A stretch of 63,421 bases of DNA from a virus, in the IMG/VR virus record IMGVR_UViG_3300043672_000009, positions 1-63,421 of that record; one strand, given 5' to 3'. The notes beneath the pieces are model-generated. The model was not told the origin of the DNA, searched no databases, and saw only the letters and a list, made by a program, of their open reading frames with translations. The position numbers and the translations under genes were made by a program. Numbering within the stretch: the stretch's first letter is position 1; each line of letters starts with the position of its first letter. Positions 8,274-50,544 of this stretch are shown piece by piece.

Positions 8274-8280
8274 GGGTGGC

Positions 8281-30803: not shown

Positions 30804-30831
30804 TGGGTGTCTCGCGGTTGTCTCGTGTTGT

Positions 30832-32960: not shown

Positions 32961-33448
32961 GTTCTGTCGGCCTGCATTGGCGCCGGCCGCTTCGTTGCCG
33001 AGCCCGACTTCGCGTTCAGCCTCTGCCGCGTCTTTGCTGGGTGGTTGCCGTGGACCCATGCCAAGCAGTGAGAAACCAGTTCGGCGCATTGCTTGGCGTC
33101 CATGTGCGCGATGTGGGCGCGCTCCTGCGGCAGGTTCATTACCACCCGCATCCACGCGTACGCGGCCTTTCGGTTCATATGGCCGCGCTCCCACAAGGCA
33201 TCGAATGCGGTGTGCGACTTGCTGCGGGCCTTGCGTGTTGCCAGGTCTGCCAGGGTCCCGAGCGGCTCCGTTCCATCGCTGTCGATCTTGACACCGTTCT
33301 CCCACCGGTACGTGCCGGCCTTGTGGGTTCCGACGTACGCGCCGCACGGTAGGCAGGACCACGCCATTCCGTAGCTGCGACCGCGGTAGATGGCCGCGGA
33401 GTCGATGAGCTTTGCGGGCCGATTGCAGTATGGACAGATTGGTTCCAC
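32957..33448 (-). CDS. Zinc-finger protein, DUF3268-like (163 aa)
   Basis: CPYCNRPAKL...WSCLPCGAYVGTH. GTG start with GAGAGG RBS. Confidence 0.7.
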   Translation of the reverse strand: MEPICPYCNRPAKLIDSAAIYRGRSYGMAWSCLPCGAYVGTHKAGTYRWENGVKIDSDGTEPLGTLADLATRKARSKSHTAFDALWERGHMNRKAAYAWMRVVMNLPQERAHIAHMDAKQCAELVSHCLAWVHGNHPAKTRQRLNAKSGSATKRPAPMQADRT

Positions 33449-34761: not shown

Positions 34762-35001
34762 ATGGATAAAGATGCGCTTCAAGCGCAGGGATGGCTGACA
34801 CGTCGCATGGTGCCGGTGTGCATCGGCCACGAAGACCCGCACGACGGCAAGCGTGAATACGTCGTGCAGTGGATTGAGCGCGCCGATGACGCGGAGTGGG
34901 ACGAATACTCAATCTGGGCGCACACCGGCGCCGATGCCATGCACGACTGCTACGAACGGCACGGCCTGAATATCACCGTCGTGGTGGTGCGTCCGCTGTG
35001 A
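34762..35001 (+). CDS. First rightward gene, small acidic protein (79 aa)
   Basis: ORF track. GGGGA lies upstream. Confidence 0.55.
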   Translation: MDKDALQAQGWLTRRMVPVCIGHEDPHDGKREYVVQWIERADDAEWDEYSIWAHTGADAMHDCYERHGLNITVVVVRPL

Positions 35002-35960
35002 CCCACGACCGCACCAAGCACTTGGGCGGCAGCGATGCTGCGGCCGTCATGGGCCTGAGCCCATGGGCCACGCCGATGCAGGTGTGGCGCCTGAAGACTG
35101 GCCGAACCGTTGACAGCATCGACGCCAAGCGGGCGAAGATCTTCCGGCGCGGCCACCTGCTGGAGCCGGTGATTCTGGAGATGGGCACCGACCGACTGCA
35201 GGAGATGGGCTTGGAGGTGGAACCGGTGTGCCGAAACGAGCGGTATCACGATCCGGAGCACCCGTTTCTGTCGGTTGAGATCGACGCCGAGTTCATCCTG
35301 TCCGGTGAGGTGGAGATCAACGGCACGCGTGTGGTGTTCGACCGCGAGCCCGTGAACTGCGATGCCAAGTCCGTGCACGGCTTCGCATCGAAGAAGTGGG
35401 GGGCCGAAGACACAGAGGATCTGCCGATTGAGTACGCGGCCCAGTTCATGACCGGGCTCATGGTGCGCGGCCGGCGCTACTGTGTGGTGTTCGCGATGCT
35501 GGGCATGGACCACGTGGGCATCTACTGGGTTGTTCGAGACGATACGACCATCGAAGCGATGCGCTCGAAGCTGGTGTCGTTCTGGTTTGATCACGTGCTG
35601 GCCGACGTGCCACCGGACCCGATTGCGTACGACGACATCACGTGCATCTTCCCCATGGACGACGGGCAGTCGGTGGAGGCGACGCCAGAGATCGCCCAGA
35701 AGGTCGCGAAGCTGGCGTCGGTGCGCAGCAGCCTGACGGTGCTGAAGGCTCAGGAGGACTTCCTCAAGTTCGACATCGCCGACTTCATCAGCCCGCATGC
35801 CGTCCTGACGTACAAGGGCAAGAAGATCGCATCTTGGAAGGGTCAGCCCAACACGCATTGGCTGGCCGACGAACTAACCAAGGATCACCCCGAGTTGGTT
35901 CACCGTTACCGCGAGACCAACACCGTACGAGTTTTGAGAGTCATCAAGGAGAAATCATGA
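34998..35960 (+). CDS. YqaJ/lambda-Exo-like recombination exonuclease (~320 aa)
   Basis: GGSDAAAVMGLSPWATPMQVWRLKTG N-terminal signature. GTG 34998 overlaps the upstream stop. Confidence 0.85.
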   Translation: MTHDRTKHLGGSDAAAVMGLSPWATPMQVWRLKTGRTVDSIDAKRAKIFRRGHLLEPVILEMGTDRLQEMGLEVEPVCRNERYHDPEHPFLSVEIDAEFILSGEVEINGTRVVFDREPVNCDAKSVHGFASKKWGAEDTEDLPIEYAAQFMTGLMVRGRRYCVVFAMLGMDHVGIYWVVRDDTTIEAMRSKLVSFWFDHVLADVPPDPIAYDDITCIFPMDDGQSVEATPEIAQKVAKLASVRSSLTVLKAQEDFLKFDIADFISPHAVLTYKGKKIASWKGQPNTHWLADELTKDHPELVHRYRETNTVRVLRVIKEKS

Positions 35961-37099
35961 GCGAGCAACAACGTGGCAGCGCCGGCCTCAAGGCGGCGGC
36001 TACCGGGACCGAGGTGGTGGAGCAGAAGCGGTCCATTTTCACCTATTTGGATCACCCCAAGGTGCAGGCTGGCATGCAGGCCGTGGCGTCCAAGTACCTG
36101 CAGCCGGAGCGGATGCTGCGGCTGTGCGTGAACGCCGCGAAGAAGACGCCCCACCTGGTGGAGTGCGATCCGCACACCGTGCTGGGCGCGATGATGACAT
36201 CGGCCGCTCTGGGCCTGGAGCCGAACACGATCCAGCAGCAGGCGTTCCTCATCCCGTACAAGAAGCGTGTCAAGCGCGGCAACCAATGGGTGGATGAGTA
36301 CGACTGCCAGTTTCAGATCGGTGCCCGCGGGTTCATCACCCTGTTCTACCGCGCACCGCAGATCCTGTCTGTGGACGGCGACAGCATCCACGACGGCGAC
36401 ATCTTTGAGCACATGAAGGGCTCCGAGAGCTTCCTGCGCTACAGCAAGGCGCTGCACAACCGTGGCGCGCTGCTGGGTGCGTTCTCGCACGTGCGGCTCA
36501 AGGATGGCGGGGAAAGCGCCTGCGTGCTGCCGGTGGAGGAGATCTACAAGATCCGCGCCCGCAGCGAGACATTCAAGGCGCTGCAGAAGCGTGTGCAGGA
36601 CGAACAAGACCCGAAGGAGCGCGACAAGCAGCAGCGAAAGCTGGACGAAACCCCGTGGGTTATGTGGGAAGACGACATGGCGATGAAGTCGGCGACGAAG
36701 AAGCACTCCAAGGTCCTGCCGATTGCCGCGTCCGATGCCGCCCTGATGGCTGCCGCAGAGATCGACAGCCGTGGCGATGCTGGCGCCTTCGATCTGCGTG
36801 CGATGCAAGACCCGTCGATGGTGCGCGCCGTGGTGCATGAGGGCATGGAACCGCCGCCACCCGAGCAGGACGACGACGATCCGGAAGTCAGCACGGAGAC
36901 CTACGGCACGCGCGGGCCTGGGTCGACGCCAGTGCCCACGGAGAAGCGGCCACCGGCTGAGAAGGCCGATGACTGGCAGCCGACCGCCGCCCAACTGAAG
37001 GCCATCCGAGACCGAGAGATCCAAGAGGCGGCGGCCAAGGACGCCCAACAAACAGCGCCGCAGCGCCGCACGCGGCCGACCCAGGGAGGCATGGAATGA
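35957..37099 (+). CDS. recT: RecT-family single-strand annealing protein (~380 aa)
   Basis: Follows the exonuclease with an ATGA overlap. RecT-like core (CDPHTVLGAMMTSAALGLEPN...QFQIGARGF) and an acidic/Pro-rich tail. Confidence 0.8.
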   Translation: MSEQQRGSAGLKAAATGTEVVEQKRSIFTYLDHPKVQAGMQAVASKYLQPERMLRLCVNAAKKTPHLVECDPHTVLGAMMTSAALGLEPNTIQQQAFLIPYKKRVKRGNQWVDEYDCQFQIGARGFITLFYRAPQILSVDGDSIHDGDIFEHMKGSESFLRYSKALHNRGALLGAFSHVRLKDGGESACVLPVEEIYKIRARSETFKALQKRVQDEQDPKERDKQQRKLDETPWVMWEDDMAMKSATKKHSKVLPIAASDAALMAAAEIDSRGDAGAFDLRAMQDPSMVRAVVHEGMEPPPPEQDDDDPEVSTETYGTRGPGSTPVPTEKRPPAEKADDWQPTAAQLKAIRDREIQEAAAKDAQQTAPQRRTRPTQGGME

Positions 37100-38871
37100 A
37101 GCTCTCAAAACTGGCCGTGCACGGCTTCGTCGGCATCAAGAGCATCGAGGTAGATCTGACCACGCCCGTGCACCTGTTCTGCGGCAGCAACTTCGCCGGC
37201 AAGTCCAGCGTCTGCGATGCGGTGGCGCTGGCGCTGACGGGCAACCTGGGCCGCGTGGCGCTGAAGAAGGACGCCGGGCAGCTCGTGCACGACGGCGCCA
37301 AGGCCGCGGCGTGTGAGGTCACCGAGAACCTGATGCTCCGCGGTAACAACGAAGACGGCATGCGCACCGAGCGGGTCTACGGCGTCACCATCACTGCCGC
37401 CGGCAAGATCCACGAGGCGCGCGAGGCCGAAGTCGATCCGACACTGCAGTACGTGCTGGACGCCCAGCGGTTCGCGGCCATGGACCAGAAAGAGCGTCGC
37501 ACCTTCCTGTTTGGCTTGATGCGGGTGCGGCTCACGCCCGCCAGCATCGTCGAGCGGTTGGAGCAGCGCGGGTGCGACAAGTCCCGCGTCGCCGAGATCG
37601 CGCCGCTCCTGCGCAGTGGGTTCGATGCCGCTCACGAGCAGGCGAAGAACAGCGCCACCCAGTCCAAGGCCCTGTGGCGCAACATCACCGGCGAGACGTA
37701 CGGGGAGGTCAAGGCCGCAACGTGGACGGCCGCGGAGCCCGATGTGAACCGGGCGATGGACGAGAGCCTTGTGCAGGCCAGCGCCCAGCAGATCGTCACG
37801 ATTGACGAACTGATCGCGAAGCAGAACCAGGCCATCGGCGGCCTGAAGAAGCTGCGTGATGAAGTCGCGTCCAAGCGTGCCAAGTTGCCGGCGCTCCGCC
37901 TGGAGGCCGAGAAGGTCGAGCGCCTGCGCAAGAAGCTGTTGGTGGACCGCGAGTCGATGGAATCCATGGAGGCCAAGGTGGCGAGCGCCAGCGGTGCCCC
38001 GCGGCCCGTGCAGACCTGGGCTTGCCCGTGCTGCGCATCGCTGTTGGTGCTGCAGGATGCCAAGCTGGTGGAGCATGTGCCGCCTGCGGGCGGCACCCCG
38101 TCCGACGCTGGACAGTTGCCGGCGTACGAGGCCATCCTACGCATGTGCAAGTTGGCGGTCGCCAACACGGAGCGCGACATTGCCGCCGCCGAATCGGCAC
38201 AGCGCCAGATCACCGACATCGATGCCTTGGACGACTTCGGCGAAGACGACACCAAGAGCATCGCCGACGCAGAGGCTGAGATCACGCGCCTGGCCGCAAA
38301 GAAGGTCGAAGTGCTGACCATGATCGAAGCATCGACGCAGTACACCAAGGATGTGGATGCAGCGAAGAAGAAAACCGCCGACGCTGCCGTCATGCATACC
38401 GCTGTCAGCGAGTGGGCAGCCATCGCCAAGGAACTCTCTCCCGATGGCATACCGGCCGATATCCTGGCCGCGACGCTGACGCCGATCAACACGCGCCTGA
38501 AGCAGTCGGCGCTCGACACCGGGTGGCCGGAGGTTGCGCTCGACGGCGACATGGTGGTGCGCGTTGGAAAGCGCATCTATGGGTTGCTGTCGGAGTCGGA
38601 GAAGTGGCGGGCCGATGCTGTGATCGCCGAGGCAATCTCCCATATCTCGGGCCGCAAGCTGCTGGTGCTGGACCGCATGGACGTGCTGGATCCGCAGTCG
38701 CGGCCGCAACTCATCGGGTGGCTCGACACCCTGGCCGACTTCGGCGACATCGACACCGCCATCGTGTGCGGGACGCTGACGAAGAAGCCGACAAGCCTGC
38801 CGAAGACGATCACGGCGCATTGGGTTGTCGGCGGCGAGATCCTGGCTGATGCCGAGTTTGAGGAGGTTTGA
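37096..38871 (+). CDS. Rad50/SbcC-like ABC ATPase with a central CPCC hook-like motif (591 aa)
   Basis: Walker A is GSNFAGKSS. Signature-like LSESEK. Walker B is LLVLDRMDVLD. A coiled-coil middle carries CPCC at 38023-38034. Confidence 0.8.
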   Translation: MKLSKLAVHGFVGIKSIEVDLTTPVHLFCGSNFAGKSSVCDAVALALTGNLGRVALKKDAGQLVHDGAKAAACEVTENLMLRGNNEDGMRTERVYGVTITAAGKIHEAREAEVDPTLQYVLDAQRFAAMDQKERRTFLFGLMRVRLTPASIVERLEQRGCDKSRVAEIAPLLRSGFDAAHEQAKNSATQSKALWRNITGETYGEVKAATWTAAEPDVNRAMDESLVQASAQQIVTIDELIAKQNQAIGGLKKLRDEVASKRAKLPALRLEAEKVERLRKKLLVDRESMESMEAKVASASGAPRPVQTWACPCCASLLVLQDAKLVEHVPPAGGTPSDAGQLPAYEAILRMCKLAVANTERDIAAAESAQRQITDIDALDDFGEDDTKSIADAEAEITRLAAKKVEVLTMIEASTQYTKDVDAAKKKTADAAVMHTAVSEWAAIAKELSPDGIPADILAATLTPINTRLKQSALDTGWPEVALDGDMVVRVGKRIYGLLSESEKWRADAVIAEAISHISGRKLLVLDRMDVLDPQSRPQLIGWLDTLADFGDIDTAIVCGTLTKKPTSLPKTITAHWVVGGEILADAEFEEV

Positions 38872-40030: not shown

Positions 40031-40069
40031 CCGGCCGCATGTCTGATCCCCAACGTGCTTTGCGGCCGG
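40031..40069 (+). other. 9-bp GC stem (CCGGCCGCA/TGCGGCCGG) with a 21-nt loop after the exonuclease gene
   Basis: Read directly. No U tract. Confidence 0.3.
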
Positions 40070-40125
40070 CCCAGTTCACAAGACCGGCGCCCTATTTCTT
40101 CTCCACCAACACAAGGACCAACGTC

Positions 40126-40875
40126 ATGTCATTCGAGCTGCTGAAGTGGGAACCCGTTCGCATCCGGCACGTCAACCTGCGGCGCGAGAAGCATGGCGAG
40201 GAAACCGTGTCGGCTCTGGATATCAAGGTCGAACTGCCGATCGAGAATCTGCGCCTGGACATGTTCCATCCGGAACTGTGCGACAAGACCTACTTCAATC
40301 GCGAGGCCGGGTCTGGCCAGCTTGCGATTGATGAGGTGCCGGAGACTCTGCCGAACCTGATCTTCCCGCAGATGAAGGCGCCCCGGAAATGGGATTTTGA
40401 GTTGAAGGGCGCGCGCGTCGTGTTCGACTACGGGCTTGGCGAAGAGCGCGGATCGAACATCGACTTGCACGGCTGCAAGGTCAAGGGCTTCGAACTGGAG
40501 ATGATCGAGGGCGGATCCGTGAACGTGGTGTTCACCATCCAGAACAGCGAGTTCCCGGATGGAGCCCTGGACAAGCTGCGCCACAAGCTGGACCAGGAGC
40601 TTCCGGTGCTCATCGTGCCGGCTGGCGCCGAGTGCGCGCTGCTTGTTCCGGTGGCCGAGCCGAAGGATCCGCCGAAGCAGAAGCCGCCCCGGGCGAACTC
40701 CAACAATGTCATCGACTTCCAGGTGCCGAAAGATGCTGCGCCTGATGCGCCGCCGACCATCGACCCGGCGCAGTTGGCGATAACGCAGGCGATGGAGTCG
40801 GCCGCATCGCCGGCACCGGCCACGGATGCGCCGAAGGCCCGCGGCTCGCGCAACACGCCGGCCAGCCTGGAGTAA
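40126..40875 (+). CDS. Hypothetical protein (249 aa)
   Basis: ATG 40126 with AAGGA upstream. Confidence 0.6.
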   Translation: MSFELLKWEPVRIRHVNLRREKHGEETVSALDIKVELPIENLRLDMFHPELCDKTYFNREAGSGQLAIDEVPETLPNLIFPQMKAPRKWDFELKGARVVFDYGLGEERGSNIDLHGCKVKGFELEMIEGGSVNVVFTIQNSEFPDGALDKLRHKLDQELPVLIVPAGAECALLVPVAEPKDPPKQKPPRANSNNVIDFQVPKDAAPDAPPTIDPAQLAITQAMESAASPAPATDAPKARGSRNTPASLE

Positions 40876-41068: not shown

Positions 41069-41394
41069 TGACCGACACGCAAGGTGGCATCGGCTGGGCG
41101 GACCCGCGCATGGATGTGCTTTCGTCGAAGTGGGTGGACGATCCCCAGCACATAAAGAAGTTTTGCGAAGGCGCGTCATGGTCGGTGGTCGGTTGGACTG
41201 ACGCAGCACGCGCCGTGTTTCGTAATGGCGACATAGTTGAACTGTCTGCCAAAGAACTGTACGACCTCGAAATCAAGAGCGACGACCAGAGCAGAAACGG
41301 CTACGTCATTCTGAAGGCGTGCTATATGAAGCTCATGAAGCAGCGCGATGTGTGGTCTGGGTACAAGAAATACTGGGCCTCTGCCGCGAACTGA
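41068..41394 (+). CDS. Hypothetical protein (108 aa)
   Basis: TAATG coupling to the previous ORF. Confidence 0.55.
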   Translation: MTDTQGGIGWADPRMDVLSSKWVDDPQHIKKFCEGASWSVVGWTDAARAVFRNGDIVELSAKELYDLEIKSDDQSRNGYVILKACYMKLMKQRDVWSGYKKYWASAAN

Positions 41395-41402
41395 GAACCG
41401 AC

Positions 41403-41687
41403 ATGCCGACACCAAAGATCTACGTCACCGGCCCGATGTTCCTGGGTGGCCCGCTGCACGCCACATCCTGCACCGGTGTGTCGGGCCCAACCTTCGCCAG
41501 CACGCGCACAGTCGGCGTCGGCGACATCCACCGCGCCACCGTGAAGACGGAGCCCGGCGAGCCGCGGCAGTACCGGGCCATGGTGACGGACTTCTACCGG
41601 AGCATGCCGCCGCCGGAAGGTTTGTATGCCTGGACCCACTACGTTCATGCCTCGCTGACGGATGCGCAGGCAATGGAGTACATCTGA
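41403..41687 (+). CDS. Hypothetical protein (94 aa)
   Basis: ORF track with an internal ATG. Confidence 0.5.
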   Translation: MPTPKIYVTGPMFLGGPLHATSCTGVSGPTFASTRTVGVGDIHRATVKTEPGEPRQYRAMVTDFYRSMPPPEGLYAWTHYVHASLTDAQAMEYI

Positions 41688-43282
41688 TGAGCACCAACCT
41701 GCAGCCGTACGACGAGAAGCTGATTCCTGAGCCAGACACCCGCTCCGACATGCACATGGATGGCCGGGGCCGCCCAGCCTACACCGCCCACTGTGTGCGC
41801 CGCATCCTCGCCGACTCGCACGCGCACTACGAGAAGCTGTTCAGCGCCGCCTCCGCAAACGGCCCGAGCATCGCGCAGGTGGAGGCTGGCGCCCAGGCGC
41901 TGCATGAATGCGGGTTTGGTGGCGAAGAAGGAAAGGCCGCGCGCGCGGCCACGGCAGACTCCGTGTGGCGGGCGATGCAGGAAGTGCCGGGCGCTCCGGT
42001 GCGTGTCGCACAGCCCGCCGCATCGCTCGCAGCCTGGCTCGCCAACAACGTGCCGGAGTTGCAGCAACGCATGTACCGCGTCAGCGACGTGGAGGCAATG
42101 CGGGATGCACTACTGCCGGAGTGCTGGGCTGCGGCCATTGCATCGGTACATCCCGCTGGCGATGCGGCCATGCCGGTGGTGGCGCACATGGTCACATCGG
42201 AAAAGGCGAACCACAAGGGACTGTTCCTGTTTGACAGTCACGCCGAAGACATGCGCAGATCCAGCGCAGCCCCAACTGACGCGAGGCATGACGCGCTCGT
42301 ACGCCAGTCCGACGCACAAGCAGCGCTGGCAGCGAAGGACGGTCTCATCGCCGGCCTGGAAGCTGACCTGGTGGAAGAGCGCAACCGCATCGCCAGCATG
42401 CGCACAGAGTGGGGCGCAGAGGTTGCGGCACTCACGCAGACCATCGCCGACAGCGATGCAGTGGTGCGGGCGATGGAGAAGCAGCGCACCATTTCCACCA
42501 CGTTCCGGCTGGCAGAGCGAGAGCGGGCTGATGCGCACAAAGCCGAACTGACGGCGCAGGCCAAGCACGCCGAAGACGTGGCTGACGCTGCGAAGGCGCG
42601 TATCGCGGAGCTTGAAGACAGGCTCAGCGTGTGCGATCACCACCTGTCAGCGTACCCAGAATCTGCGCCGTCAATGATTCTGTCCGGTGACATTCGAGCG
42701 ACACTTGACAATCCGACCATCAACACGCGTGGCGCACTTTCTGACGCGCCAGCCGTGAGCATGGGCGGCGCCGGTGTCACCGTCACGCTGGCGCAGCCCG
42801 ACAGCCTGGACTGGGATGCGCCGGATCGGCGCCCACAGCCGTGCTGCGGCGACCCAACGAACTGCGATGCCGCGGCGATGGGTGTGTGCTCGCCGGTTGC
42901 TGCCGCCGAGGCGGCCGGCGTCGCTGCATGCGTGACGTGCGGCGCTCCGTCTGGGGTGCCGGCGGCGCCGTGGCGAGATCACGCTGAGCAGCGCATCCGC
43001 ACATGGCGCCAGCGCACCATGAACTGGTCCGGTGATCGCCTGGGCATCGACGACTTCATGGGAGCCGAATCGATCGACGATCTTGTTGATTGGGTGTGCG
43101 ACGAGTACGCCGGGCCAGCGAACCGATCTACGTCGGCACAGCGCGATACCGCCGCCATGCTGGAGGAGCACATGCGGCTGGTGGATGAGGCAGTTTCTGC
43201 CGCCTCTGGAGATGGTTCGTTTCGGCTGGGTATCAGGGATCTGATCGAGGCCAGCGCAAAGTGCATGCTGGGGATCGCATGA
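41687..43282 (+). CDS. Coiled-coil protein with a Cys-rich segment (531 aa)
   Basis: TGATG coupling to the previous ORF. Central heptad-like region. CCGDPTNCD...CVTCG. Confidence 0.6.
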   Translation: MSTNLQPYDEKLIPEPDTRSDMHMDGRGRPAYTAHCVRRILADSHAHYEKLFSAASANGPSIAQVEAGAQALHECGFGGEEGKAARAATADSVWRAMQEVPGAPVRVAQPAASLAAWLANNVPELQQRMYRVSDVEAMRDALLPECWAAAIASVHPAGDAAMPVVAHMVTSEKANHKGLFLFDSHAEDMRRSSAAPTDARHDALVRQSDAQAALAAKDGLIAGLEADLVEERNRIASMRTEWGAEVAALTQTIADSDAVVRAMEKQRTISTTFRLAERERADAHKAELTAQAKHAEDVADAAKARIAELEDRLSVCDHHLSAYPESAPSMILSGDIRATLDNPTINTRGALSDAPAVSMGGAGVTVTLAQPDSLDWDAPDRRPQPCCGDPTNCDAAAMGVCSPVAAAEAAGVAACVTCGAPSGVPAAPWRDHAEQRIRTWRQRTMNWSGDRLGIDDFMGAESIDDLVDWVCDEYAGPANRSTSAQRDTAAMLEEHMRLVDEAVSAASGDGSFRLGIRDLIEASAKCMLGIA

Positions 43283-43824
43283 GCGCCCGCGATCTGTTGG
43301 CATCGTGCGAGCGCGATGCGCTTGTCAGCGAGTGCGGCATGTTCAGGTACTGGCTGCTTCGCCGGTGGGGATCGGCCCCCATGCTGCTGTTCGTGATGCT
43401 GAACCCCAGCACCGCGGATGCCAGCGTTGATGACGCCACGATCCGCCGGTGTGCGACCTTTGCAGATGCTCACGGGTACGGCGGCTTCTTGGTGGCCAAC
43501 CTTTTCGCCTACCGGGCCACGAAGCCGGCTGACCTGAAGCGCGCCGGCTATCCGGTCGGGCCTGAGAACGACGTGCACATCCGGCGCCTTCTGGGCGAGT
43601 GCGGCCACGTCTGCGTGGCATGGGGCGCCAACGCGGCCGACCTGGAGCGGCCCCAGGTCGTGCTGCCAATGATCCGCAGCGTCGGCATCGTTCCGCTGTG
43701 CCTGGCCATCACCCGAAGCGGCCACCCGCAACACCCGCTGATGCTGGCGAGCGCGTGCCGGCTGCATCCGTTCACCATTGGCGCGATCGAGGACACCATG
43801 TTCAATCGGGAGGCTCTGACATGA
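43279..43824 (+). CDS. DUF1643-family protein (181 aa)
   Basis: FRYWLLRRW...LLFVMLNPSTADASVDDATIRRC...GYGGFLVANLFAYRAT pattern. Confidence 0.75.
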   Translation: MSARDLLASCERDALVSECGMFRYWLLRRWGSAPMLLFVMLNPSTADASVDDATIRRCATFADAHGYGGFLVANLFAYRATKPADLKRAGYPVGPENDVHIRRLLGECGHVCVAWGANAADLERPQVVLPMIRSVGIVPLCLAITRSGHPQHPLMLASACRLHPFTIGAIEDTMFNREALT

Positions 43825-43946
43825 AACGCGCAAGCAGTTGGATTGCCGGCTACGGCTGGGCCTACATCATCAGCATCGTGTTGCGCTGGATCGTTGCCGC
43901 TGGCGTGTGCGTCGTTCTGGCGATGGTGATCGCGGGGGCGCCATGA
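43821..43946 (+). CDS. Small membrane peptide (41 aa)
   Basis: ATGA coupling at both ends. One to two hydrophobic segments. Confidence 0.45.
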   Translation: MKRASSWIAGYGWAYIISIVLRWIVAAGVCVVLAMVIAGAP

Positions 43947-44221
43947 GCCTCACCCCCACCACCGTCAAGTTCAACCTGGACCTGCCGGCCAGGGATAGCA
44001 CCGGGCCGATCAACGACTTCGGCCAGCACAAATTCGTGGTGCTGCGCAAGCTGTCCGAGATGCGCATTGCCACGCGCGCCGAGCTGCTCACCGCCCTGAT
44101 CATGTCGGACGCCCAGGCCACGGCCGCGCTGGACAAGTTGGTCGATGCCGGAATGGTCCGCGATGTCGATGGCTTCCTCACCGTCACCGAGGCTGGGGCG
44201 TCGAAGCTCCTGGCGCTATGA
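43943..44221 (+). CDS. Winged-helix-like small protein (92 aa)
   Basis: KFVVLRKLSEMRIATRAELLTAL...LDKLVDAGMV pattern. Confidence 0.5.
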   Translation: MSLTPTTVKFNLDLPARDSTGPINDFGQHKFVVLRKLSEMRIATRAELLTALIMSDAQATAALDKLVDAGMVRDVDGFLTVTEAGASKLLAL

Positions 44222-44403
44222 CCGACCCAACCGAACACGCGCAGATGTGCGAAGACTGCGAGACGCGCGAGCAGCGCCTGAGCGACTACGAGCGCGGCTT
44301 CGTGGACTCGATCAAGGCCCAGTTGGCAGCCGGTCGCACGCTGTCGAAGAAGCAGGCCGACAAGCTCGAAGAGATCTGGGACCGGGCGACAGACGGCGGT
44401 TGA
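44218..44403 (+). CDS. Small protein (61 aa)
   Basis: ATGA coupling to the previous ORF. Confidence 0.5.
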   Translation: MTDPTEHAQMCEDCETREQRLSDYERGFVDSIKAQLAAGRTLSKKQADKLEEIWDRATDGG

Positions 44404-44450
44404 CACGCCGGCGTGTTAGCACCACATTACAGAAGCACAAGGAGCAGACC

Positions 44451-45215
44451 ATGCGAATCAACGATCCTGAAGACCGCGCCATACGGCTGCACAGCCATGC
44501 CATTGCGGCGGCCAGGGAGCCGAATCCGGCCACGAAGACGGTGCAGAAACCATGCACAGCGGTGTGGGCGGAATCGTTCTCCAAGATCATGGGCGAGGGA
44601 GTTGCGGGCGATCCGGAGCCGGCCATGCGCTGCGGCGTCGATCTGGCAAAGCCAGGGACCGACACGGCGGCGGGTGTGAATAGTCGCAAGCCCAGTGTCA
44701 TTGACGCAATTCATGGCTCCGTGAGACTACCGCCCGGAGGCGCGCTTGCCGTGAATGCTGTCGGAGATGGGTTTGTTGGCGTCAAGCCGCCCAACAACAC
44801 CGCTGACCACGCGGCGTTCGCAATGAAGGCCAACATCGCGGCACACAAGGTCGCAGCATTGCATCGCGAGGGCTCGTGTGGGTTCGGCGCTCTTCTGACA
44901 CAGGCCCGTGTCAGTTGCGGCCTACCAGCGCAGCCGTTCGATGATGAAGACCGCAAGGAGTCATTGAGGCAGTTGGGTGAGAAGTTCGACAAGGCCATGT
45001 TTCTGGCCCTTACCGGTGGCCGCAAGCCCGGCGAGTTCTTCGTTGGAGATCGGGTCTACGTGACAACGCCCGGGATGAGGGGATTGTGCTTCACCCTACT
45101 GCGCAGCGATATGCATAGAAACTGGACCGCGAGGGCGGATGGAAAGAACGATGGAGTCATTTTTGTTCAAGACCATCACATTCGCCTGCTTGACGAACAG
45201 CCCGACGTGTCATGA
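44451..45215 (+). CDS. Hypothetical protein (254 aa)
   Basis: ATG 44451 with AAGGAG 7 nt upstream. Confidence 0.6.
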   Translation: MRINDPEDRAIRLHSHAIAAAREPNPATKTVQKPCTAVWAESFSKIMGEGVAGDPEPAMRCGVDLAKPGTDTAAGVNSRKPSVIDAIHGSVRLPPGGALAVNAVGDGFVGVKPPNNTADHAAFAMKANIAAHKVAALHREGSCGFGALLTQARVSCGLPAQPFDDEDRKESLRQLGEKFDKAMFLALTGGRKPGEFFVGDRVYVTTPGMRGLCFTLLRSDMHRNWTARADGKNDGVIFVQDHHIRLLDEQPDVS

Positions 45216-47815
45216 GCTACGAGGCGTTCCTGAAATCCAAGGTGCGGCTGGCCGAGCCGCATGGCTTTGCTATCGATGCGTCGGAAGTGAGCGCGGTACT
45301 GAAGCCGCACCAGGTTGCCATCGTGGTGTGGATGGTCATGATGGGGCGCGCGGCTTGCTTTGCGGCATTCGGTTTGGGCAAGAGCGTGATCCAACTGGAG
45401 GTTGTGCGCATCATGCGAGCCAGGGCCGGTGGCATGGGGTTGTTGGTAATCCCTCTGGGCGTCCGCGCCGAGTTCATGCGCGACGCCGCCATGCTCGGAA
45501 TCGTCGTCAAGTTCGTGCGCCGCATCGAAGAGTGCGACGACCCGGACGGCATCTACCTTACCAACTACGAGACGGTGCGCGATGGCAAGATGGACCCGCG
45601 CCTTTTCTCCGTGACAAGCCTGGACGAGGCCGCCTGTCTGCGCGGCTTCGGCGGCACCAAAACCTTCCGCGAGTTCATGGCCCTATTCGCCGGTGACGAT
45701 CGCCGCGATCACCTCAATGCCCGCGTGCAGACGAAGTCGGTGCTCTATCGCTTCGTGGCCACGGCCACGCCCAGCCCGAACGACTATGTCGAGTTGCTGG
45801 CCTACAGCGCGTTCCTGGGCGTTATGGACGTTGGCCAGGCGAAGACCCGCTTCTTCAAGCGCAACAGCGAGAAGGCCGACGAGCTGACGATTCACCCTCA
45901 CAAGGAACGCGAATTCTGGTTGTGGTGCGCGAGCTGGGGCCTGTTCGTCCAGCGGCCCAGCGACCTGGGGTTCAGCGATGAAGGCTACGAGTTGCCGCCT
46001 GTCGATGTGCGCTGGCACGAGATCCCGGCCGATCATGCTGCTGCCGGCGAGACGCACTACGGCCAGGGCCTCATGTTCAAAGAGCAGGCTCTGGGTGTGG
46101 TGGAAGCGGCGCGAGAGAAGCGCGACAGCCTGCCGGCGCGCATCAACAAGCTGATGGATCTACGCGCCGAAGACCCGGCAGCCCATCGCGTGATCTGGCA
46201 CGACCTGGAGGCGGAGAGACGCGCGATCGAGCGTGCCATCCCTGGCGTTGTAAGTGTCTTCGGCAGCCAGGAGCTGGACGAGCGCGAGCAGATCGTGGCC
46301 GCCTTCTCAGAAGGCCGCGTGCAGGAGTTGGCCGGGAAGCCTGTGATGCTTGGCAGTGGCTGCAACCTGCAGCGGCACTGCGCCTGGGCCGTGTTCCTTG
46401 GAATCGGCTTCAAGTTCAACGACTTCATCCAGGCCGTGCACCGGCTGCAGCGGTTCTTGCAGACGCGACCCGTTCGCATCGATTTGATTTACACCGAGGC
46501 GGAGCGCGAGGTGCGCCGCCAGCTTGAGCGTAAGTGGAAACAGCACAATGAAATGGTGGCACGCATGACGGAAATCATTCGCGAGTTCGGACTCAACCGG
46601 GCCGCCATGGCCTATACGCTTACGCGCAAGATGGGCGCGGAGCGTGTCGAAGTCAAAGGCGACGGCTTCACTCTGGTAAATAGCGACTGTGTGCCGGAAA
46701 CACGGCGCATGGCCGACAACAGCGTTGGCCTGATCCTTACTTCAATCCCGTTCAGCACGCAATACGAGTACTCGCCGAATTACGCGGATTTCGGCCACAC
46801 AGACACCAATGACCATTTCTTCCAGCAGATGGACTACCTGACGCCTGAACTGATGCGCGTACTGCACCCCGGGCGCCTGGCTGCCATCCACGTCAAGGAC
46901 CGCATCGTGCCGGGCGGAATGACCGGCCTGGGCTTCCAGACCGTCTACCCTTTCCACTGCAAGACCATCGAGCATTTCCAGCGGCACGGCTTCGCCTACA
47001 TGGGCATGAAGACGATCGTCACTGACGTGGTGCGAGAGAACAACCAGACATACCGACTCGGGTGGTCGGAGCAATGCAAGGACGCCAGCAAAATGGGCGT
47101 TGGCATGCCGGAGTACCTGCTGATATTCCGCAAGCCCCCGAGCGACACCTCGAACAGCTACGCCGACAAGCCGGTTGTGAAGCTGAAGCCATTCAGCCTA
47201 GACGCTGACGGCAACATGATCCAGTTCGATCGAGAAAAGCCCATGGTGGTCGGCACCGGCTACTCGCGTTCTCGCTGGCAAGTCGATGCCCACGGTTTCA
47301 CCAGATCATCCGGAAACCGCCTGCTGACACCCGATGAACTGCAGGGCCTGACGCACGCTGACATCTTCAAGATGTTCAAGAATCACTCGCTCGAAACTGT
47401 CTACGACTTCGAGCACCACGTGCGCATCGGAGAGGCGCTGGAAGAGACGGGCCGGCTGCCAGTCACCTTCATGCTTCTGCAGCCGCAGAGCTGGGCTGAT
47501 GATGTGTGGACCGACATCACCAGAATGCTGACACTCAACGGGGCCCAGTCGGCGAAAGGCAAGGAAATGCACCTTTGCCCCTTGCAGTTCGACATCGCGG
47601 ATCGTGTGATTGCGCAGTTCAGCATGCCGGGTGAGACGGTGCTGGACCCGTTTGGCGGCCTGATGACGGTTCCTTATCGAGCCGTCCTCGCCAACCGACG
47701 CGGCTACGGCATCGAACTGAACCCGTCGTACTTCACGGACGGTGCCGCCTACTGCAAGGCTGCGGAGCGTGAAATGAGCATGCCATCCCTGTTTGACGCC
47801 GTTGGTGCCGCATGA
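45212..47815 (+). CDS. Fusion of an SF2 (SNF2/DEAD-like) helicase and a C-terminal N6A/N4C DNA methyltransferase (867 aa)
   Basis: Helicase motifs: I is FGLGKS, II is LDEAACL, VI-like is QAVHRLQRF. Methyltransferase motifs: IV-like is TSIPF (46742-46753), I is VLDPFGGLMT (47639-47668). Confidence 0.85.
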   Translation: MSYEAFLKSKVRLAEPHGFAIDASEVSAVLKPHQVAIVVWMVMMGRAACFAAFGLGKSVIQLEVVRIMRARAGGMGLLVIPLGVRAEFMRDAAMLGIVVKFVRRIEECDDPDGIYLTNYETVRDGKMDPRLFSVTSLDEAACLRGFGGTKTFREFMALFAGDDRRDHLNARVQTKSVLYRFVATATPSPNDYVELLAYSAFLGVMDVGQAKTRFFKRNSEKADELTIHPHKEREFWLWCASWGLFVQRPSDLGFSDEGYELPPVDVRWHEIPADHAAAGETHYGQGLMFKEQALGVVEAAREKRDSLPARINKLMDLRAEDPAAHRVIWHDLEAERRAIERAIPGVVSVFGSQELDEREQIVAAFSEGRVQELAGKPVMLGSGCNLQRHCAWAVFLGIGFKFNDFIQAVHRLQRFLQTRPVRIDLIYTEAEREVRRQLERKWKQHNEMVARMTEIIREFGLNRAAMAYTLTRKMGAERVEVKGDGFTLVNSDCVPETRRMADNSVGLILTSIPFSTQYEYSPNYADFGHTDTNDHFFQQMDYLTPELMRVLHPGRLAAIHVKDRIVPGGMTGLGFQTVYPFHCKTIEHFQRHGFAYMGMKTIVTDVVRENNQTYRLGWSEQCKDASKMGVGMPEYLLIFRKPPSDTSNSYADKPVVKLKPFSLDADGNMIQFDREKPMVVGTGYSRSRWQVDAHGFTRSSGNRLLTPDELQGLTHADIFKMFKNHSLETVYDFEHHVRIGEALEETGRLPVTFMLLQPQSWADDVWTDITRMLTLNGAQSAKGKEMHLCPLQFDIADRVIAQFSMPGETVLDPFGGLMTVPYRAVLANRRGYGIELNPSYFTDGAAYCKAAEREMSMPSLFDAVGAA

Positions 47816-48480
47816 ACCAAACACCGAAGACGGGCCGCCCGTCCCCAATGCAAGACGCCATCCGAGAGGTCCTGACCGCCGGCCCGGCGCTTGGCATGAC
47901 CTTGGTGGAGATCCGCGAGGCCACCGGCCGCAAGGCGCAGCAAACCGCGAACACGCTGAAGCACATGCTGAACGTGGGCAGCATCTTCTGGGTGTATGTG
48001 AAGCCGCGTTCCAGGTACTTCCTCACTGAGGCCGCTGCTGAGGCCTCCAGGCCGGCAGTGATGGAGGCCGAGAAGGTGCTGCGCAAGGAGATGCGTCAGG
48101 CGTCCATCGCGCGTTCCGTGATCGCCAAGCGTGAGCGGAACGCCGCGAACCCAGATCGACGGCCACTCGGGCGGCCCCGCAAAACGGCGCAGGAGAAGGC
48201 CGCGCAGCCGAAGCACAAGGCGGAGGGCGGCCACTGCTGGAAGCGCGTGCCGGCCCAAGCAAGCGCCTCAGAGATGCCGCTGTTGGTGCCATCATCACCG
48301 CCGCGGAAAGTGAGGGCGCCAGCCGGTCCGCCCGTAGTGATCTGGCCGGCGCACGTGAAGGTGAAGAAGTCGCCACCCAAGAAGGACATGCGCTTCGCGC
48401 CCGATGATGGCTTCGTCGGTGAGTTCGTGAAGGCGGGCATTGGGCGCTACCTGCAGACGCAGGAGGAAGCGGAATCGTGA
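47812..48480 (+). CDS. Winged-helix N-terminal domain protein with a basic linker (222 aa)
   Basis: IREVLTAGPALGMTLVEIREATGRKAQQTANTLKHMLNVGSI. Confidence 0.55.
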   Translation: MNQTPKTGRPSPMQDAIREVLTAGPALGMTLVEIREATGRKAQQTANTLKHMLNVGSIFWVYVKPRSRYFLTEAAAEASRPAVMEAEKVLRKEMRQASIARSVIAKRERNAANPDRRPLGRPRKTAQEKAAQPKHKAEGGHCWKRVPAQASASEMPLLVPSSPPRKVRAPAGPPVVIWPAHVKVKKSPPKKDMRFAPDDGFVGEFVKAGIGRYLQTQEEAES

Positions 48481-48698
48481 GCCAACAAGACCCGCCAATG
48501 TCGCTAGCTTCCGAGATGCTTCTGCGCGACGTGCGGCAACTCGTCAAACGTTATGGCTCGGCCGTGGTCACTGGTTTTGTATTGCGATCAAGTGGCGGCA
48601 CCCGCGATTGGCCAGAGGACCCAGGTGTCAAGATCGTTGACGTGAAACTGAGCTACTTTGGCGACGACTTCGACCGCTTCACGTTTGGGCCGTCATGA
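48477..48698 (+). CDS. Small protein (73 aa)
   Basis: Overlap coupling at both ends. Confidence 0.5.
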   Translation: MSQQDPPMSLASEMLLRDVRQLVKRYGSAVVTGFVLRSSGGTRDWPEDPGVKIVDVKLSYFGDDFDRFTFGPS

Positions 48699-49216
48699 GC
48701 GACACGTTCGAGGTTGTGCTCCAGCCCGACAACCCGGGCGACTTCCGCGACGCCTTCACGCGGGCCTACCGATTCGCCGAGGTGATGCTGCGCAACGGTG
48801 AGCGCATGCGGCTGCGCGTGGAGATCGATGACAACGACGTGCGGCATGCCCAGCGCAAGTTTCTACACGGGATCGTGTTCAAGCAGATCAGCGAGCAAGT
48901 GCGCGTTGGCGATACCGGAGAGCGCTACGTCATATCCATCTGGAAGGAGTATTACCGCAAGCTGTTTCTGCCCGACGTGTGGGAGCACTACAAGCTCCCC
49001 GGAGAGAAGCGGGCCACACCGCGCCGGGTGCGCCAATCCACGGAAGACTTGGGCGTCAAGGCGTACGCGGAGTACACCGAGCGCGTGACAGCCCACGCAG
49101 AAACCGAATGGGGCGTCGAGTTCGTCTTCGAGGAAGACGGCCAAGAGTACCTCCGTCGCAAGCCTGGCAGCCGCCAGAACCCGAAGCACAAGCCAATCCT
49201 GAAGGCGGTTGCGTGA
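48695..49216 (+). CDS. NinB/Orf-like recombination mediator (173 aa), tentative
   Basis: HAQRKFLHGIVFKQISEQ...WKEYYRKLFL pattern, and a nin-region-like context. Confidence 0.45.
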   Translation: MSDTFEVVLQPDNPGDFRDAFTRAYRFAEVMLRNGERMRLRVEIDDNDVRHAQRKFLHGIVFKQISEQVRVGDTGERYVISIWKEYYRKLFLPDVWEHYKLPGEKRATPRRVRQSTEDLGVKAYAEYTERVTAHAETEWGVEFVFEEDGQEYLRRKPGSRQNPKHKPILKAVA

Positions 49217-49237
49217 CGCAACAAAGTGGAGCGCAGA

Positions 49238-50248
49238 ATGACTGAAAACACGAAGATCGAATGGGCCGATAGCACGTTCAACCCATGGACCGGTTGCACA
49301 AAGGTCGGCCCAGGCTGCGACCACTGCTACGCCGAGGGCTGGGCCAAGCGCAGCGGCAACGTGCAATGGGGTCCGCACGCCGAGCGGCGCCGCACCACAC
49401 CAGCGAACTGGCGCAAGCCGCTGCAGTGGGAGCGCGATCACCAGGCGTTCCATGCCCAGCACGGCCGCCGGCAGCGCGTGTTCTGCGCCTCGCTGGCCGA
49501 CGTGTTCGACAACGCAGTGGATCCGGCTTGGCGAGCCGAGCTGTTCGCGCTCATCGATCGGACGCCGCACCTGTGCTGGTTGCTGCTTACCAAGCGCATA
49601 GGGAACGTGGCGGCCATGGTTCAGGTACCAGGCATGCAGAAGTGCGGACTGCCTCCCAACGTCTGGCTCGGTGCTACTGTGGTCAACCAGGAAGAGGCGG
49701 ACCGCGACATTCCAAAGCTGCTGGCCGTGCCGGCGCGTGTGCGGTTCTTGAGCATCGAGCCGATGCTGGGACCGATCGACCTCGGGCTGCAGTGCGAGAA
49801 CTGGTCCGACGACATCATCATGGACCCCGAGACTGGCGCATTCGAGTGCTGCAAGGCCTGCGACTACACCGGCATCGGCAATGCCATCGACTGGGTGATA
49901 TGTGGCGGCGAGAGCGGCCCCGGCGCGAGGCCGATGCATCCCGACTGGGCCCGTTCGCTGCGTGACAAATGCGCCAGTGCCGGCGTGCCGTTCCTGTTCA
50001 AGCAATGGGGCGAGTGGGCCGAGCACGACAGCCACCGGGCGGTACGCACCGTCAGCATGGACACCGATATCGGCCAGACGCTGGCCACACGCTGCGAAGG
50101 CTTTATCAGCCGGTCCGGCGAGTTCGTGCGAGACATGGCCTACGCCACTACCGACGATCCATACCGCGGCATGGTGCACGTCGGCAAGAAGGTGGCAGGC
50201 CGCCTGCTGGACGGCGTGGAGCACAACGGCTTCCCGTCGCCCACATGA
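49238..50248 (+). CDS. Phage Gp37/Gp68 (DUF5131) family protein (336 aa)
   Basis: TKIEWADSTFNPWTGCTKVGPGCDHCYAE N-terminal signature. Confidence 0.8.
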   Translation: MTENTKIEWADSTFNPWTGCTKVGPGCDHCYAEGWAKRSGNVQWGPHAERRRTTPANWRKPLQWERDHQAFHAQHGRRQRVFCASLADVFDNAVDPAWRAELFALIDRTPHLCWLLLTKRIGNVAAMVQVPGMQKCGLPPNVWLGATVVNQEEADRDIPKLLAVPARVRFLSIEPMLGPIDLGLQCENWSDDIIMDPETGAFECCKACDYTGIGNAIDWVICGGESGPGARPMHPDWARSLRDKCASAGVPFLFKQWGEWAEHDSHRAVRTVSMDTDIGQTLATRCEGFISRSGEFVRDMAYATTDDPYRGMVHVGKKVAGRLLDGVEHNGFPSPT

Positions 50249-50544
50249 GCCGAATCACCGCCAGCGCCCGCAACGAAGACTGCACCATCCGCCTGCCCGG
50301 CATCTGCACCTTCGACCCCGCCAAGACGATTTGGTCACACGCCAGGTGGGGCCGCGCCGGCAAAGGCAGGAGCATCAAGCCGATGGACCTGTGCGGGGCG
50401 TACGCGTGCACAGCCTGCGATGCTGCGTTTGACCAGTTGCAAGGCGCCAAGGCCGCTGGCCTGACCCGCGCGCAGATCGATGCCGACTGGATGATGGGCC
50501 ATCTGGAGTCTTTGGTGAAGCTGCGGGCGAAGGGGCTGGTTTGA
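50245..50544 (+). CDS. DUF1364-like Cys-rich protein (99 aa)
   Basis: CTIRLPGICTFDPAKTIWSHAR...KPMDLCGAYACTACDAAFD. Confidence 0.65.
   Translation: MSRITASARNEDCTIRLPGICTFDPAKTIWSHARWGRAGKGRSIKPMDLCGAYACTACDAAFDQLQGAKAAGLTRAQIDADWMMGHLESLVKLRAKGLV

Follow-up and report, generated by a model that had tools for sequence, protein, structure and literature searches.

A phage gene joining a Snf2-type ATPase to a beta-class DNA methyltransferase belongs to the PHROG 16 family and probably serves to protect phage DNA

A phage gene that appears to join a helicase to a DNA methyltransferase in one polypeptide raises the questions of what each half is, whether the pair belongs to a known system, and what the protein does for the phage. 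The window analyzed here is the record IMGVR_UViG_3300043672_000009 over its full length (63,421 nucleotides), a complete 63-kb phage genome that encodes one intact motor and methylase fusion. The sequence-only reading had described ORF 45212–47815 as a single-chain SF2 helicase plus methyltransferase; this description is borne out, with the ATPase specifically of the Snf2 type. The ORF list and translation give a complete gene with an ATG start, homologues align from residue 1–3 through to the C-terminus, and every residue of the predicted model is accounted for as motor, linker, or methylase. The parts of the gene are given below, with residues called invariant on the basis of an alignment (A1) of 48 homologues with 29–79% identity.

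45212..47815, plus strand: Snf2 ATPase and beta-class DNA methyltransferase fusion gene (P0001), 867 aa
45290..46597, plus strand: Snf2-type ATPase motor, aa ~27–462, two RecA-like lobes with Snf2-type helical inserts (AF2 model, pLDDT 82.6)
45371..45385, plus strand: Walker A or helicase motif I, GLGKS, aa 54–58 (G54, G56, and K57 invariant)
45623..45634, plus strand: Walker B or motif II, DEAA, aa 138–141 (D138 and E139 invariant)
45761..45781, plus strand: motif III, TATPSPN, aa 184–190 (T186, P187, P189, and N190 invariant)
46337..46375, plus strand: motif V region, KPVMLGSGCNLQR, aa 376–388 (K376, G383, N385, and Q387 invariant)
46430..46462, plus strand: Snf2-type motif VI, QAVHRLQRFLQ, aa 407–417 (Q407, R411, and R414 invariant)
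46496..46627, plus strand: long helical linker from motor to methylase, aa ~429–472 (helices 429–459 and 463–472, AF2 model)
46649..47791, plus strand: beta-class amino-methyltransferase domain, aa ~480–860 (PF01555, domain model, VIA-align, and Foldseek)
46742..46753, plus strand: catalytic motif IV, S-I-P-F, aa 511–514 (S511, P513, and F514 invariant; aligned with SPPY of TTHA0409)
aa 639–641: motif VIII, FRK
47144..47551, plus strand: variable, presumed target-recognition region between motif VIII and HxCP (poorly modelled)
47570..47581, plus strand: H-L-C-P motif, aa 787–790 (H787 invariant, C789 and P790 at least 90%; aligned with the HPAP region of TTHA0409)
47645..47659, plus strand: AdoMet-binding motif I of the FxGxG type, DPFGG, aa 812–816 (G816 invariant, P813 and F814 at least 90%; aligned with DPFAG of TTHA0409)

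All motifs quoted in the sequence-only reading lie where it had placed them (GLGKS at aa 54–58, LDEAACL at 137–143, QAVHRLQRF at 407–415, TSIPF at 510–514, and VLDPFGG at 810–816), and the position of TSIPF before VLDPFGG is the beta-class order. The fusion thus keeps the ATPase motifs I, II, III, V, and VI in sequence, followed by the methylase motifs IV (S-x-P-F), HxCP, and I (FxGxG).

A Pfam search of the fusion sequence returned no helicase, SNF2-rel_dom, ResIII, or nuclease domain match, and SNF2-rel_dom gave a weak, sub-threshold match on one homologue (P0196). Structure comparison was more informative about the motor. The best 50 Foldseek matches of its model in the PDB were Snf2-family ATPases without exception (E down to 1.5e-16), with Brg1 (7vdt, E 1.5e-16), Mot1, Chd1, INO80, ISWI, CSB, and RapA among the matches, and the family profile matched the SsoRad54-like structure 1z63 (E 4.8e-23). 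Motif VI has the family consensus QAxxRxxRFGQ, compared with QxxxRxxRxGQ for the Snf2 type, and reads QAVHRLQRFLQ in the fusion. On predicted fold, profile, and motif VI taken together, the N-terminal half is assigned to the Snf2-family SF2 ATPases.

The C-terminal half was recognized directly by PF01555 (N6_N4_Mtase; aa 506–842, 41.2 bits against a cut-off of 26.7). Its domain model (pLDDT 85.1, pTM 0.86) was returned as a beta-class methylase fold by Foldseek, and VIA-align gave Z-scores of 25.5 with TTHA0409 (2zie), 23.1 with CcrM and M.BceJIV, 22.9 with M.PvuII and M.MboIIA, 20.4 with N4CMT, and 20.1 with EcoP15I Mod. The AdoMet fold on which the earlier proposal of methylation had been made to depend is therefore present in the model. 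TTHA0409 of Thermus thermophilus HB8 (2zie, 2zif, and 2zig) is the closest solved structure to this domain (rmsd 2.2 Å over 220 residues, 27% identity, profile E-value 1.2e-32); it is a stand-alone putative beta-class methylase that lacks a motor, has SPPY as motif IV and DPFAG as motif I, and is shorter than the fusion between motifs VIII and X. The corresponding part of the fusion contains a helical insert of ~90 aa in the target-recognition region that is absent from distant homologues: columns 691–780 are 45–98% gaps among homologues at about 30% identity, and pLDDT is 31–66 for aa ~700–790 in both the AF2 and the domain models. By class, as judged from the predicted fold and the conserved motifs, the C-terminal half is a classical AdoMet-dependent beta-class amino-methyltransferase.

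Comparison with phage protein families showed that the combination of domains is not peculiar to this genome. The PHROG 16 profile covers the fusion end to end (aa 26–864, E 4.7e-117), tblastn found 302 deposited phage records with at least 80% query coverage and up to 70% identity, and full-length relatives of the fusion form >4,000 clusters at 50% identity. Matches of this strength and number, like that to PF01555, are far from what chance would give. Over 99–100% of the protein, identity is 70% to Pseudomonas phages, 65% to RR1-A, and 54% to mycobacteriophages. Named members include Pseudomonas phage phi297 gp10 (YP_005098037, 70% identity), RHXG_00056 of Rhizobium phage RR1-A, proteins of the F116-like phages PA8 and vB_Pae_CF24a (‘SNF2 family helicase’) and of Paracoccus phage Pthi1, and those of the cluster F mycobacteriophages Kenuha5 (gp64) and SuperGrey. 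These members are equal to the fusion in length, domain order, motifs, and early-operon position; compared with the named phages, the flanking genes alone differ, with DUF1643, a winged-helix gene, and ORFs of no known family upstream and no second methylase. In hundreds of genomes, phage homologues are annotated as DNA helicase, DNA methylase N-4/N-6, or SNF2 family helicase. On the profile and alignment results, the fusion is not new but one unremarkable representative of a phage family that is very large and already carries annotation, and ‘Snf2-family ATPase / DNA methyltransferase (PHROG 16)’ is a suitable annotation for it. A literature search found no biochemical or methylome data on any PHROG 16 member, and a paper on the Paracoccus virome does not include the homologue-bearing Pthi1 in its list of phages with methylase genes. 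Both motif sets are invariant in the 48 aligned homologues, down to 29% identity, which argues that both activities are under selection. Some homologues carry inteins, located inside or beside conserved ATPase and methylase motifs. Free of inteins, with a P-loop of the standard GLGKS form and no second methylase in the genome, the present fusion would make a good canonical test member.

The surroundings of the gene were compared across 81 viral loci. The following features flank the fusion in the present phage.

43261–43824: DUF1643 gene (E 1.4e-39)
43838–44221: winged-helix gene, MarR-like (weak match)
45212..45215, plus strand: ATGA start/stop overlap with the upstream ORF 44145–45215 (sequence read directly)
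47812..47815, plus strand: ATGA stop/start overlap with the downstream ORF 47812–48480 (sequence read directly)
~2.4 kb downstream of the fusion: YbcO/HNH-like gene

From the ATGA overlaps at both its ends, the gene is part of an operon with translational coupling; the operon also holds a YqaJ exonuclease, an SMC-like ATPase, and a NinB-like protein and is syntenic in kind with that of phi297. The operon context proposed earlier is thus upheld for the early operon and for DUF1643, whereas the winged-helix assignment fits a MarR-like protein only weakly. The two overlapping ORFs (44145–45215 and 47812–48480) have no detectable family and do not recur beside homologues in 80 other viral loci, and the downstream ORF shows no relationship to phi297 gp9. 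When all flanking ORFs of the 81 loci were clustered, no conserved partner gene emerged (the best cluster was present in 17 loci) and no nuclease family recurred near the fusion. The commonest neighbour was a C5-cytosine methylase, found in 22 of the 81 loci (the 17 plus a second C5-methylase cluster), followed by DUF5131 and a PAPS-reductase-like gene. By their predicted gene content, the neighbourhoods of the fusion are DNA-modification islands. The C5-methylase itself is absent from the present phage, in whose genome PF00145, PF02384, and PF02086 have no match.

Taken with the conservation of catalytic motifs in both halves, self-methylation against restriction, as had been suggested from the sequence, is the most economical reading. 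We consider it probable that the fusion is an intact PHROG 16 member that carries out motor-assisted methylation of phage DNA at an early stage of infection for protection from restriction, with N4-cytosine as the probable target. In the proposed mechanism, the fusion would be expressed from the early operon and would probably dimerize through its methylase domain, as is usual for beta-class enzymes, which are likely to be active as dimers only (PMC7544214). ATP hydrolysis would drive movement or sliding along duplex DNA, and the methylase could thereby reach its targets on incoming and replicating phage DNA, outrunning host restriction enzymes. The mark would probably be N4-methylcytosine, with N6-methyladenine as the alternative. 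The fusion would act alone; no partner gene is conserved beside it, and it lacks a nuclease domain. For the present phage itself the gene matters very little, and its interest lies at the level of the family: PHROG 16 proteins, among the commonest accessory proteins of phages, link a DNA methylase to a motor of the chromatin-remodeller type. Which base they modify, which sequence they recognize, and what ATP contributes bear on the prediction of phage host range and possibly on tools that write methylation along DNA.

A pairing of helicase and methylase had earlier called to mind two known systems, and neither link survived direct comparison. DISARM is a multi-gene host defence system in which a Snf2 helicase, DrmD, is accompanied by the methylase DrmMI or DrmMII. 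The fusion scored 13.2 bits against the DrmD equivalog NF038317 (NCBIfam), compared with a cut-off of 610, the PADLOC DrmD model matched at aa 347–481 (E 3.5e-4), both models covering the C-lobe of the ATPase only, and no MZB/DUF1998 gene of the DrmA/DrmB kind (PF09369) was matched in the complete phage genome. P1 DarB and the ‘DNA methylase-helicase dyad’ of polyvalent proteins combine a Snf2-related ATPase with an amino-methyltransferase in a mobile element; the role predicted for such dyads, and shown for DarB, is to shield incoming DNA against restriction (Iyer et al. 2017, PMC5512222). The same paper describes DarB as a structural part of the P1 virion head (PMC5512222). A direct BLASTP comparison with DarB gave a best E-value of 1.2, and Pfam places N6_Mtase and Eco57I (gamma-class) at aa 145–290 and SNF2-rel_dom at aa 849–911 of its 2,255 aa, whereas the fusion has the opposite domain order, a C-terminal beta-class methylase (PF01555), and a place in an early operon. 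The resemblance to DarB and to DISARM is one of analogy only.

Protection from restriction has to be weighed against a regulatory role, in which the enzyme would mark phage (or host) DNA epigenetically and so set the timing of transcription, replication, or packaging, with the motor doing no more than help coverage. The position of the gene in an early operon, beside replication and recombination genes, is consistent with such a role, and a regulatory function is known for orphan enzymes of the beta class, CcrM among them (PMC7544214). However, no reader protein was identified in the present phage, the breadth of the family over unrelated hosts argues against a specific circuit, and the neighbours across the 81 loci are not conserved, with DNA-modifying enzymes as the commonest, which fits protection better. 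We therefore regard a regulatory role as unlikely.

Alternatively, the Snf2 motor could be the primary activity, remodelling or stripping proteins from DNA or processing forks or recombination intermediates on behalf of the neighbouring recombination genes, with the methylase serving mainly as a DNA-binding or targeting module that is perhaps weakened in the S-I-P-F subfamily. Protein displacement is typical of Snf2 ATPases, and Mot1 and RapA are among the fold matches of the motor. The YqaJ, SMC-like, and NinB genes adjoin the fusion in this phage, and homologues adjoin RecT and a PD-(D/E)XK nuclease in phi297 and RecA-like and Ku-like genes in Kenuha5. Such adjacency carries little weight, however, as temperate phages keep all their accessory DNA genes in early operons. 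Both position 2 of motif IV and motif I, which ends in GGLMT rather than GxGS in the S-I-P-F subfamily, deviate from the usual form, but S511, P513, F514, H787, and G816 are invariant and the modelled AdoMet fold is intact, which would be unexpected for a mere binding module, and inteins target the methylase motifs as well as those of the ATPase. On balance, a primarily motor function appears improbable.

The likeness to Type III enzymes is of a different kind. EcoP15I Mod2Res also combines a dimeric beta-class methylase with an SF2 ATPase that drives long-range DNA movement, and the methylase model matches EcoP15I Mod with the Z-score given above, its ATPase being joined as in Mod-Res. One could accordingly imagine a phage-borne system, restriction-like or for superinfection exclusion, split in a Type III-like manner, with modification carried out by the fusion and the nuclease encoded by a neighbouring gene: ORFs of no known family are ATGA-coupled on both sides, the YbcO/HNH-like gene lies downstream, and an HNH gene is directly upstream of the homologue in Kenuha5. 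This is very improbable, in that the flanking ORFs are not kept at the 80 other viral loci and the fusion has neither a nuclease domain nor room for one. Membership in Type III restriction-modification was likewise rejected, since neither a nuclease nor a ResIII domain is found in the fusion and no nuclease family recurs beside its homologues. Compared with Type III enzymes, the fusion is one chain, its ATPase is Snf2-type and not Res-type, it has no PD-(D/E)xK nuclease, and modification would be its sole outcome. It is possible, although we put this forward tentatively and with some doubt, that PHROG 16 proteins are a mechanistically new class of single-chain, nuclease-free counterparts of Type III enzymes, in which ATP-driven Snf2 translocation would make a dimeric, probably m4C, methylase processive or able to strip off host proteins, such that the whole phage genome could be modified within minutes of entry.

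Motif IV bears on the chemistry of the reaction. The textbook beta-class motif IV is (D/N/S)PP(Y/F), and S-I-P-F had been called atypical; this holds against the textbook form, but within its own subfamily S-I-P-F is standard, found in 139 of 202 database homologues and in 74 of 81 related viral loci, with SVPF in two others and five loci not scored. The form shared by the whole family is S-x-P-F: S, P, and F never vary, position 2 may be P, I, V, W, or T, and distant members have exactly SPPF. The target amino group is held by the Ser of SPPY together with the carbonyl of its first Pro (PMC10406627), and this carbonyl is retained when Ile replaces the Pro. The suggestion that the odd motif signals a different base modification was accordingly not sustained: S-I-P-F is a subfamily variant within the standard beta-class model, and its distribution among aligned sequences gives no evidence for different chemistry. 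Transfer of a non-methyl group, or modification of a non-canonical target, which Ile at position 2, the LMT instead of GS at the end of motif I, and the recurrence of DUF5131 and PAPS-reductase-like genes near homologues might suggest, is extremely improbable, given that the invariant residues of S-x-P-F form the canonical amino-methyltransferase loop and that the domain matches ordinary m6A and m4C enzymes (Z 20–25) with no extra catalytic domain.

With regard to the target base, fold and profile scores tie m6A enzymes (CcrM, M.BceJIV, and M.MboIIA) with m4C enzymes (M.PvuII and N4CMT), and the sole remaining hint is therefore the first residue of motif IV. This residue is an invariant Ser in the fusion family, as it is in M.PvuII (SPPF) and N4CMT (SPPY), both of which are m4C enzymes, and it hints at N4-cytosine rather than N6-adenine as the modified base.

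The 867-aa fusion protein is encoded at 45212-47815 (+), as determined from the ORF list and translation. The window is a complete IMG/VR record for a virus, is 63,421 bp long, and has direct terminal repeats. The ORF is exactly as described in the sequence-only reading, and all of the motifs quoted there were located (GLGKS, aa 54-58; LDEAACL, 137-143; QAVHRLQRF, 407-415; TSIPF, 510-514; VLDPFGG, 810-816). At each end the gene shares an ATGA with its neighbor: its start ATG overlaps the upstream stop codon, and its stop codon overlaps the downstream start. The fusion gene therefore belongs to an early operon on the plus strand whose genes are translationally coupled. This operon includes the anticipated DUF1643 and winged-helix neighbors, the latter as a weak match:

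34896-35960, plus strand, YqaJ-type exonuclease, upstream of the fusion
37096-38871, plus strand, SMC/Rad50-like AAA ATPase, upstream of the fusion
43261-43824, plus strand, DUF1643
43838-44221, plus strand, winged-helix protein (weak match)
48695-49216, plus strand, NinB-like gene, after the fusion
49226-50248, plus strand, DUF5131 gene, after the fusion
49969-50544, plus strand, YbcO/HNH-like gene (nominal ORF), after DUF5131

The DUF5131 ORF extends over the 5' portion of the nominal YbcO-like ORF, the true start of which probably lies after 50248, and an ORF in another frame (49285-49965) returned no matches when scanned. Two further ORFs of the operon, 41348-43282 (+; 644 aa) and 40039-40875 (+; 278 aa), had no Pfam or PHROG match. 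The YqaJ and SMC/Rad50-like pair (34896-38871, +) resembles the early region of Pseudomonas phage phi297, in which the helicase-methylase comes directly after genes for an AAA ATPase, an FtsK-like protein, RecT, and a PD-(D/E)XK nuclease. The minus strand encodes a DUF6745 protein (29508-30929; E 4e-41), a DnaB-type replicative helicase (26620-28062), and large ORFs without a Pfam match (31296-33362, 12637-14940, and 6204-8471).

Pfam recognized PF01555 alone in the fusion (41.2 bits, cut-off 26.7; aa 506-842), and the phage protein family PHROG 16 ('DNA helicase') matched aa 26-864 (E 4.7e-117), so the whole fusion corresponds to a catalogued phage family, with which it agrees in every testable feature. 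Using tblastn, 324 of 50,697 phage records were matched, 302 of them over at least 80% of the fusion. These include Pseudomonas phages at about 70% identity (phi297, YMC11/07/P54, PA8, and the vB_Pae_CF/BR series), Rhizobium phage RR1-A (65%), Paracoccus phage Pthi1 (63%), cluster F mycobacteriophages (54%), and many Flavobacterium, Arthrobacter, Liberibacter, Gordonia, and Synechococcus phages, with annotations that vary among 'DNA helicase', 'DNA methylase N-4/N-6', and 'SNF2 family helicase'. The closest relatives (75-80% identity) come from Burkholderiales genomes, and in large protein collections the family comprises at least 8,000 clusters at 90% identity (E ≤ 1e-10) and 4,251 clusters at 50% identity (E ≤ 1e-3). 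The fusion thus adds a member to a family that is already known and extensively annotated, and for which no functional study was found in the literature searched.

The full-length protein was modeled with AlphaFold2 using 48 diverse homologues (mean pLDDT 82.6, pTM 0.74). All of the best 50 Foldseek matches of this model in the PDB were Snf2-family ATPases, including Brg1 in PBAF (E 1.5e-16), Mot1, Chd1, INO80, ISWI, CSB, and RapA, and the family profile matched the Sulfolobus Snf2/Rad54 core 1z63 (E 4.8e-23). The C-terminal domain, modeled separately (aa 477-867; pLDDT 85.1, pTM 0.86), aligned structurally with the beta-class amino-methyltransferases TTHA0409 (Z 25.5), CcrM (23.1), M.BceJIV (23.1), M.PvuII (22.9), M.MboIIA (22.9), rotifer N4CMT (20.4), and EcoP15I Mod (20.1), in agreement with Foldseek; therefore, the AdoMet-binding fold on which the methyltransferase assignment depended is present in the model. 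The two halves are joined by a long modeled helical linker (aa 429-472). The region between motif VIII and the conserved HxCP motif (aa ~645-780) is variable and poorly modeled, with ~90 residues absent from homologues of ~30% identity; beta-class enzymes carry a target-recognition region at this site, and the segment is presumed to be that region here.

Among 48 homologues with 29-79% identity to the fusion, the invariant residues included Q34, G54, G56, K57, D138, E139, T186, P187, P189, N190, K376, G383, N385, Q387, Q407, R411, and R414 in the ATPase, and S511, P513, F514, H787, and G816 in the methylase. Thus, motif IV (aa 511-514) is S-x-P-F family-wide: a distant branch has Pro at the second position (SPPF), and the branch that includes the window phage has Ile, Val, or Trp there. 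S-I-P-F, previously called atypical, does look unusual but is the norm for its branch, being found in 74 of 81 viral loci (SVPF in 2) and 139 of 202 database homologues (SPPF 42, SVPF 10, SWPF 3). N4-cytosine enzymes such as M.PvuII (SPPF) and N4CMT (SPPY) have Ser at the first position as their signature; in adenine enzymes the signature is Asp or Asn. Given this Ser, we lean toward m4C as the predicted product, at somewhat better than even chances; structural and profile similarity scores did not discriminate m4C from m6A enzymes. In enzymes of known structure, the target amino group is held by the residue that opens motif IV together with the main-chain carbonyl of the Pro after it (PMC10406627). 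Because Ile retains this carbonyl, S-I-P-F gives no grounds for expecting lost activity or changed chemistry.

When all flanking ORFs were clustered across 80 related viral loci (46-74% identity) and the window, no neighbor of the fusion was conserved across the 81 loci. C5-cytosine methylases (two clusters) were the commonest (22 loci), followed by DUF5131 (Gp37/Gp68) within 4 kb (8, including the window), DnaB (7), S24 repressors (7), and PAPS-reductase-like proteins (5); the company of the fusion, when present, is further DNA-modifying enzymes. DUF5131 was assigned to 49226-50248 (+) by clustering, with a cluster member (L007:8432-9343) matching PF07505 (E 3e-88). RR1-A also carries a Gp37/Gp68 gene. 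The two ATGA-coupled ORFs, 44145-45215 (+) and 47812-48480 (+), had no Pfam or PHROG match and did not occur beside homologues in the 80 other loci; the former (start uncertain) had no ESM Atlas match, and the latter is unrelated to phi297 gp9. Because these flanks lack family and recurrence, and no other DNA methylase (PF00145, PF02384, or PF02086) was matched in the window phage, the fusion appears to act on its own.

The likeness to DarB and DISARM that had been proposed may describe how the fusion works, but not what it belongs to. P1 DarB, in which an N-terminal N6_Mtase/Eco57I-type methylase is followed by the Snf2 domain, was rejected (best BLASTP E 1.2), as were DISARM, when tested, and Type III restriction-modification, because the fusion has no nuclease. 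Snf2 motors follow the minor groove of duplex DNA but do not unwind the duplex. Where mobile elements pair a Snf2 ATPase with a methylase, the pair is predicted to counter restriction, and P1 DarB is the archetype that has been tested (PMC5512222). Beta-class enzymes are probably active only as dimers (PMC7544214). Identity, fold, conservation of both catalytic halves, and early-operon position are established for the fusion, and its probable role is motor-assisted methylation of phage DNA that protects against host restriction. The protein would dimerize via its methylase domain, use ATP to travel along phage DNA, both incoming and replicating, and methylate targets fast enough to outrun restriction, as a one-chain, nuclease-free counterpart of the Type III Mod-Res complex. 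An epigenetic or regulatory role is unlikely, and a motor-centered role in recombination or remodeling slightly more so. It is very improbable that the fusion supplies the modification activity of a restriction-like system carried by the phage; neither a nuclease in the fusion nor a fixed partner gene was found. The odd motif, once taken as a possible sign of a different base modification, is no evidence for one, given the retained carbonyl and the family-wide S-x-P-F; non-methyl modification is the least probable explanation. Whether members of the family are m4C writers coupled to a motor, and perhaps processive, is a question for the family as a whole.

Many homologues reach 1,000-1,400 aa owing to inserts (P0024, P0035, P0119, P0128, P0140, and P0208; also P0125, P0137, and P0196). 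Inteins, recognized by Hint or LAGLIDADG domains, occur close to query positions 210, 400-411 (motif VI), and 789 (within HxCP, before the Pro), and intein-sized inserts (~340 aa) without a Pfam match directly follow K57 (P-loop) and F514 (motif IV). Their occurrence agrees with the inteins reported in 'DNMT-1' of cluster F mycobacteriophages (PMC5050341) and is indirect evidence that both active sites matter. The fusion of the window phage has the canonical P-loop GLGKS. In 30 of 80 related fusion proteins (loci including L010, L011, L014, L070, L073, and L075), the P-loop is G-x-[H/Q/M]-K-T rather than G-x-G-K-[ST], with DExx, the motif VI Q/R/R, and S-I-P-F all intact; these proteins form a subclade of considerable size, whose non-canonical Walker A still looks selected. 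A separate insert of 150-200 aa recurs at ~252-256 and 317-343, between the ATPase lobes of homologues.
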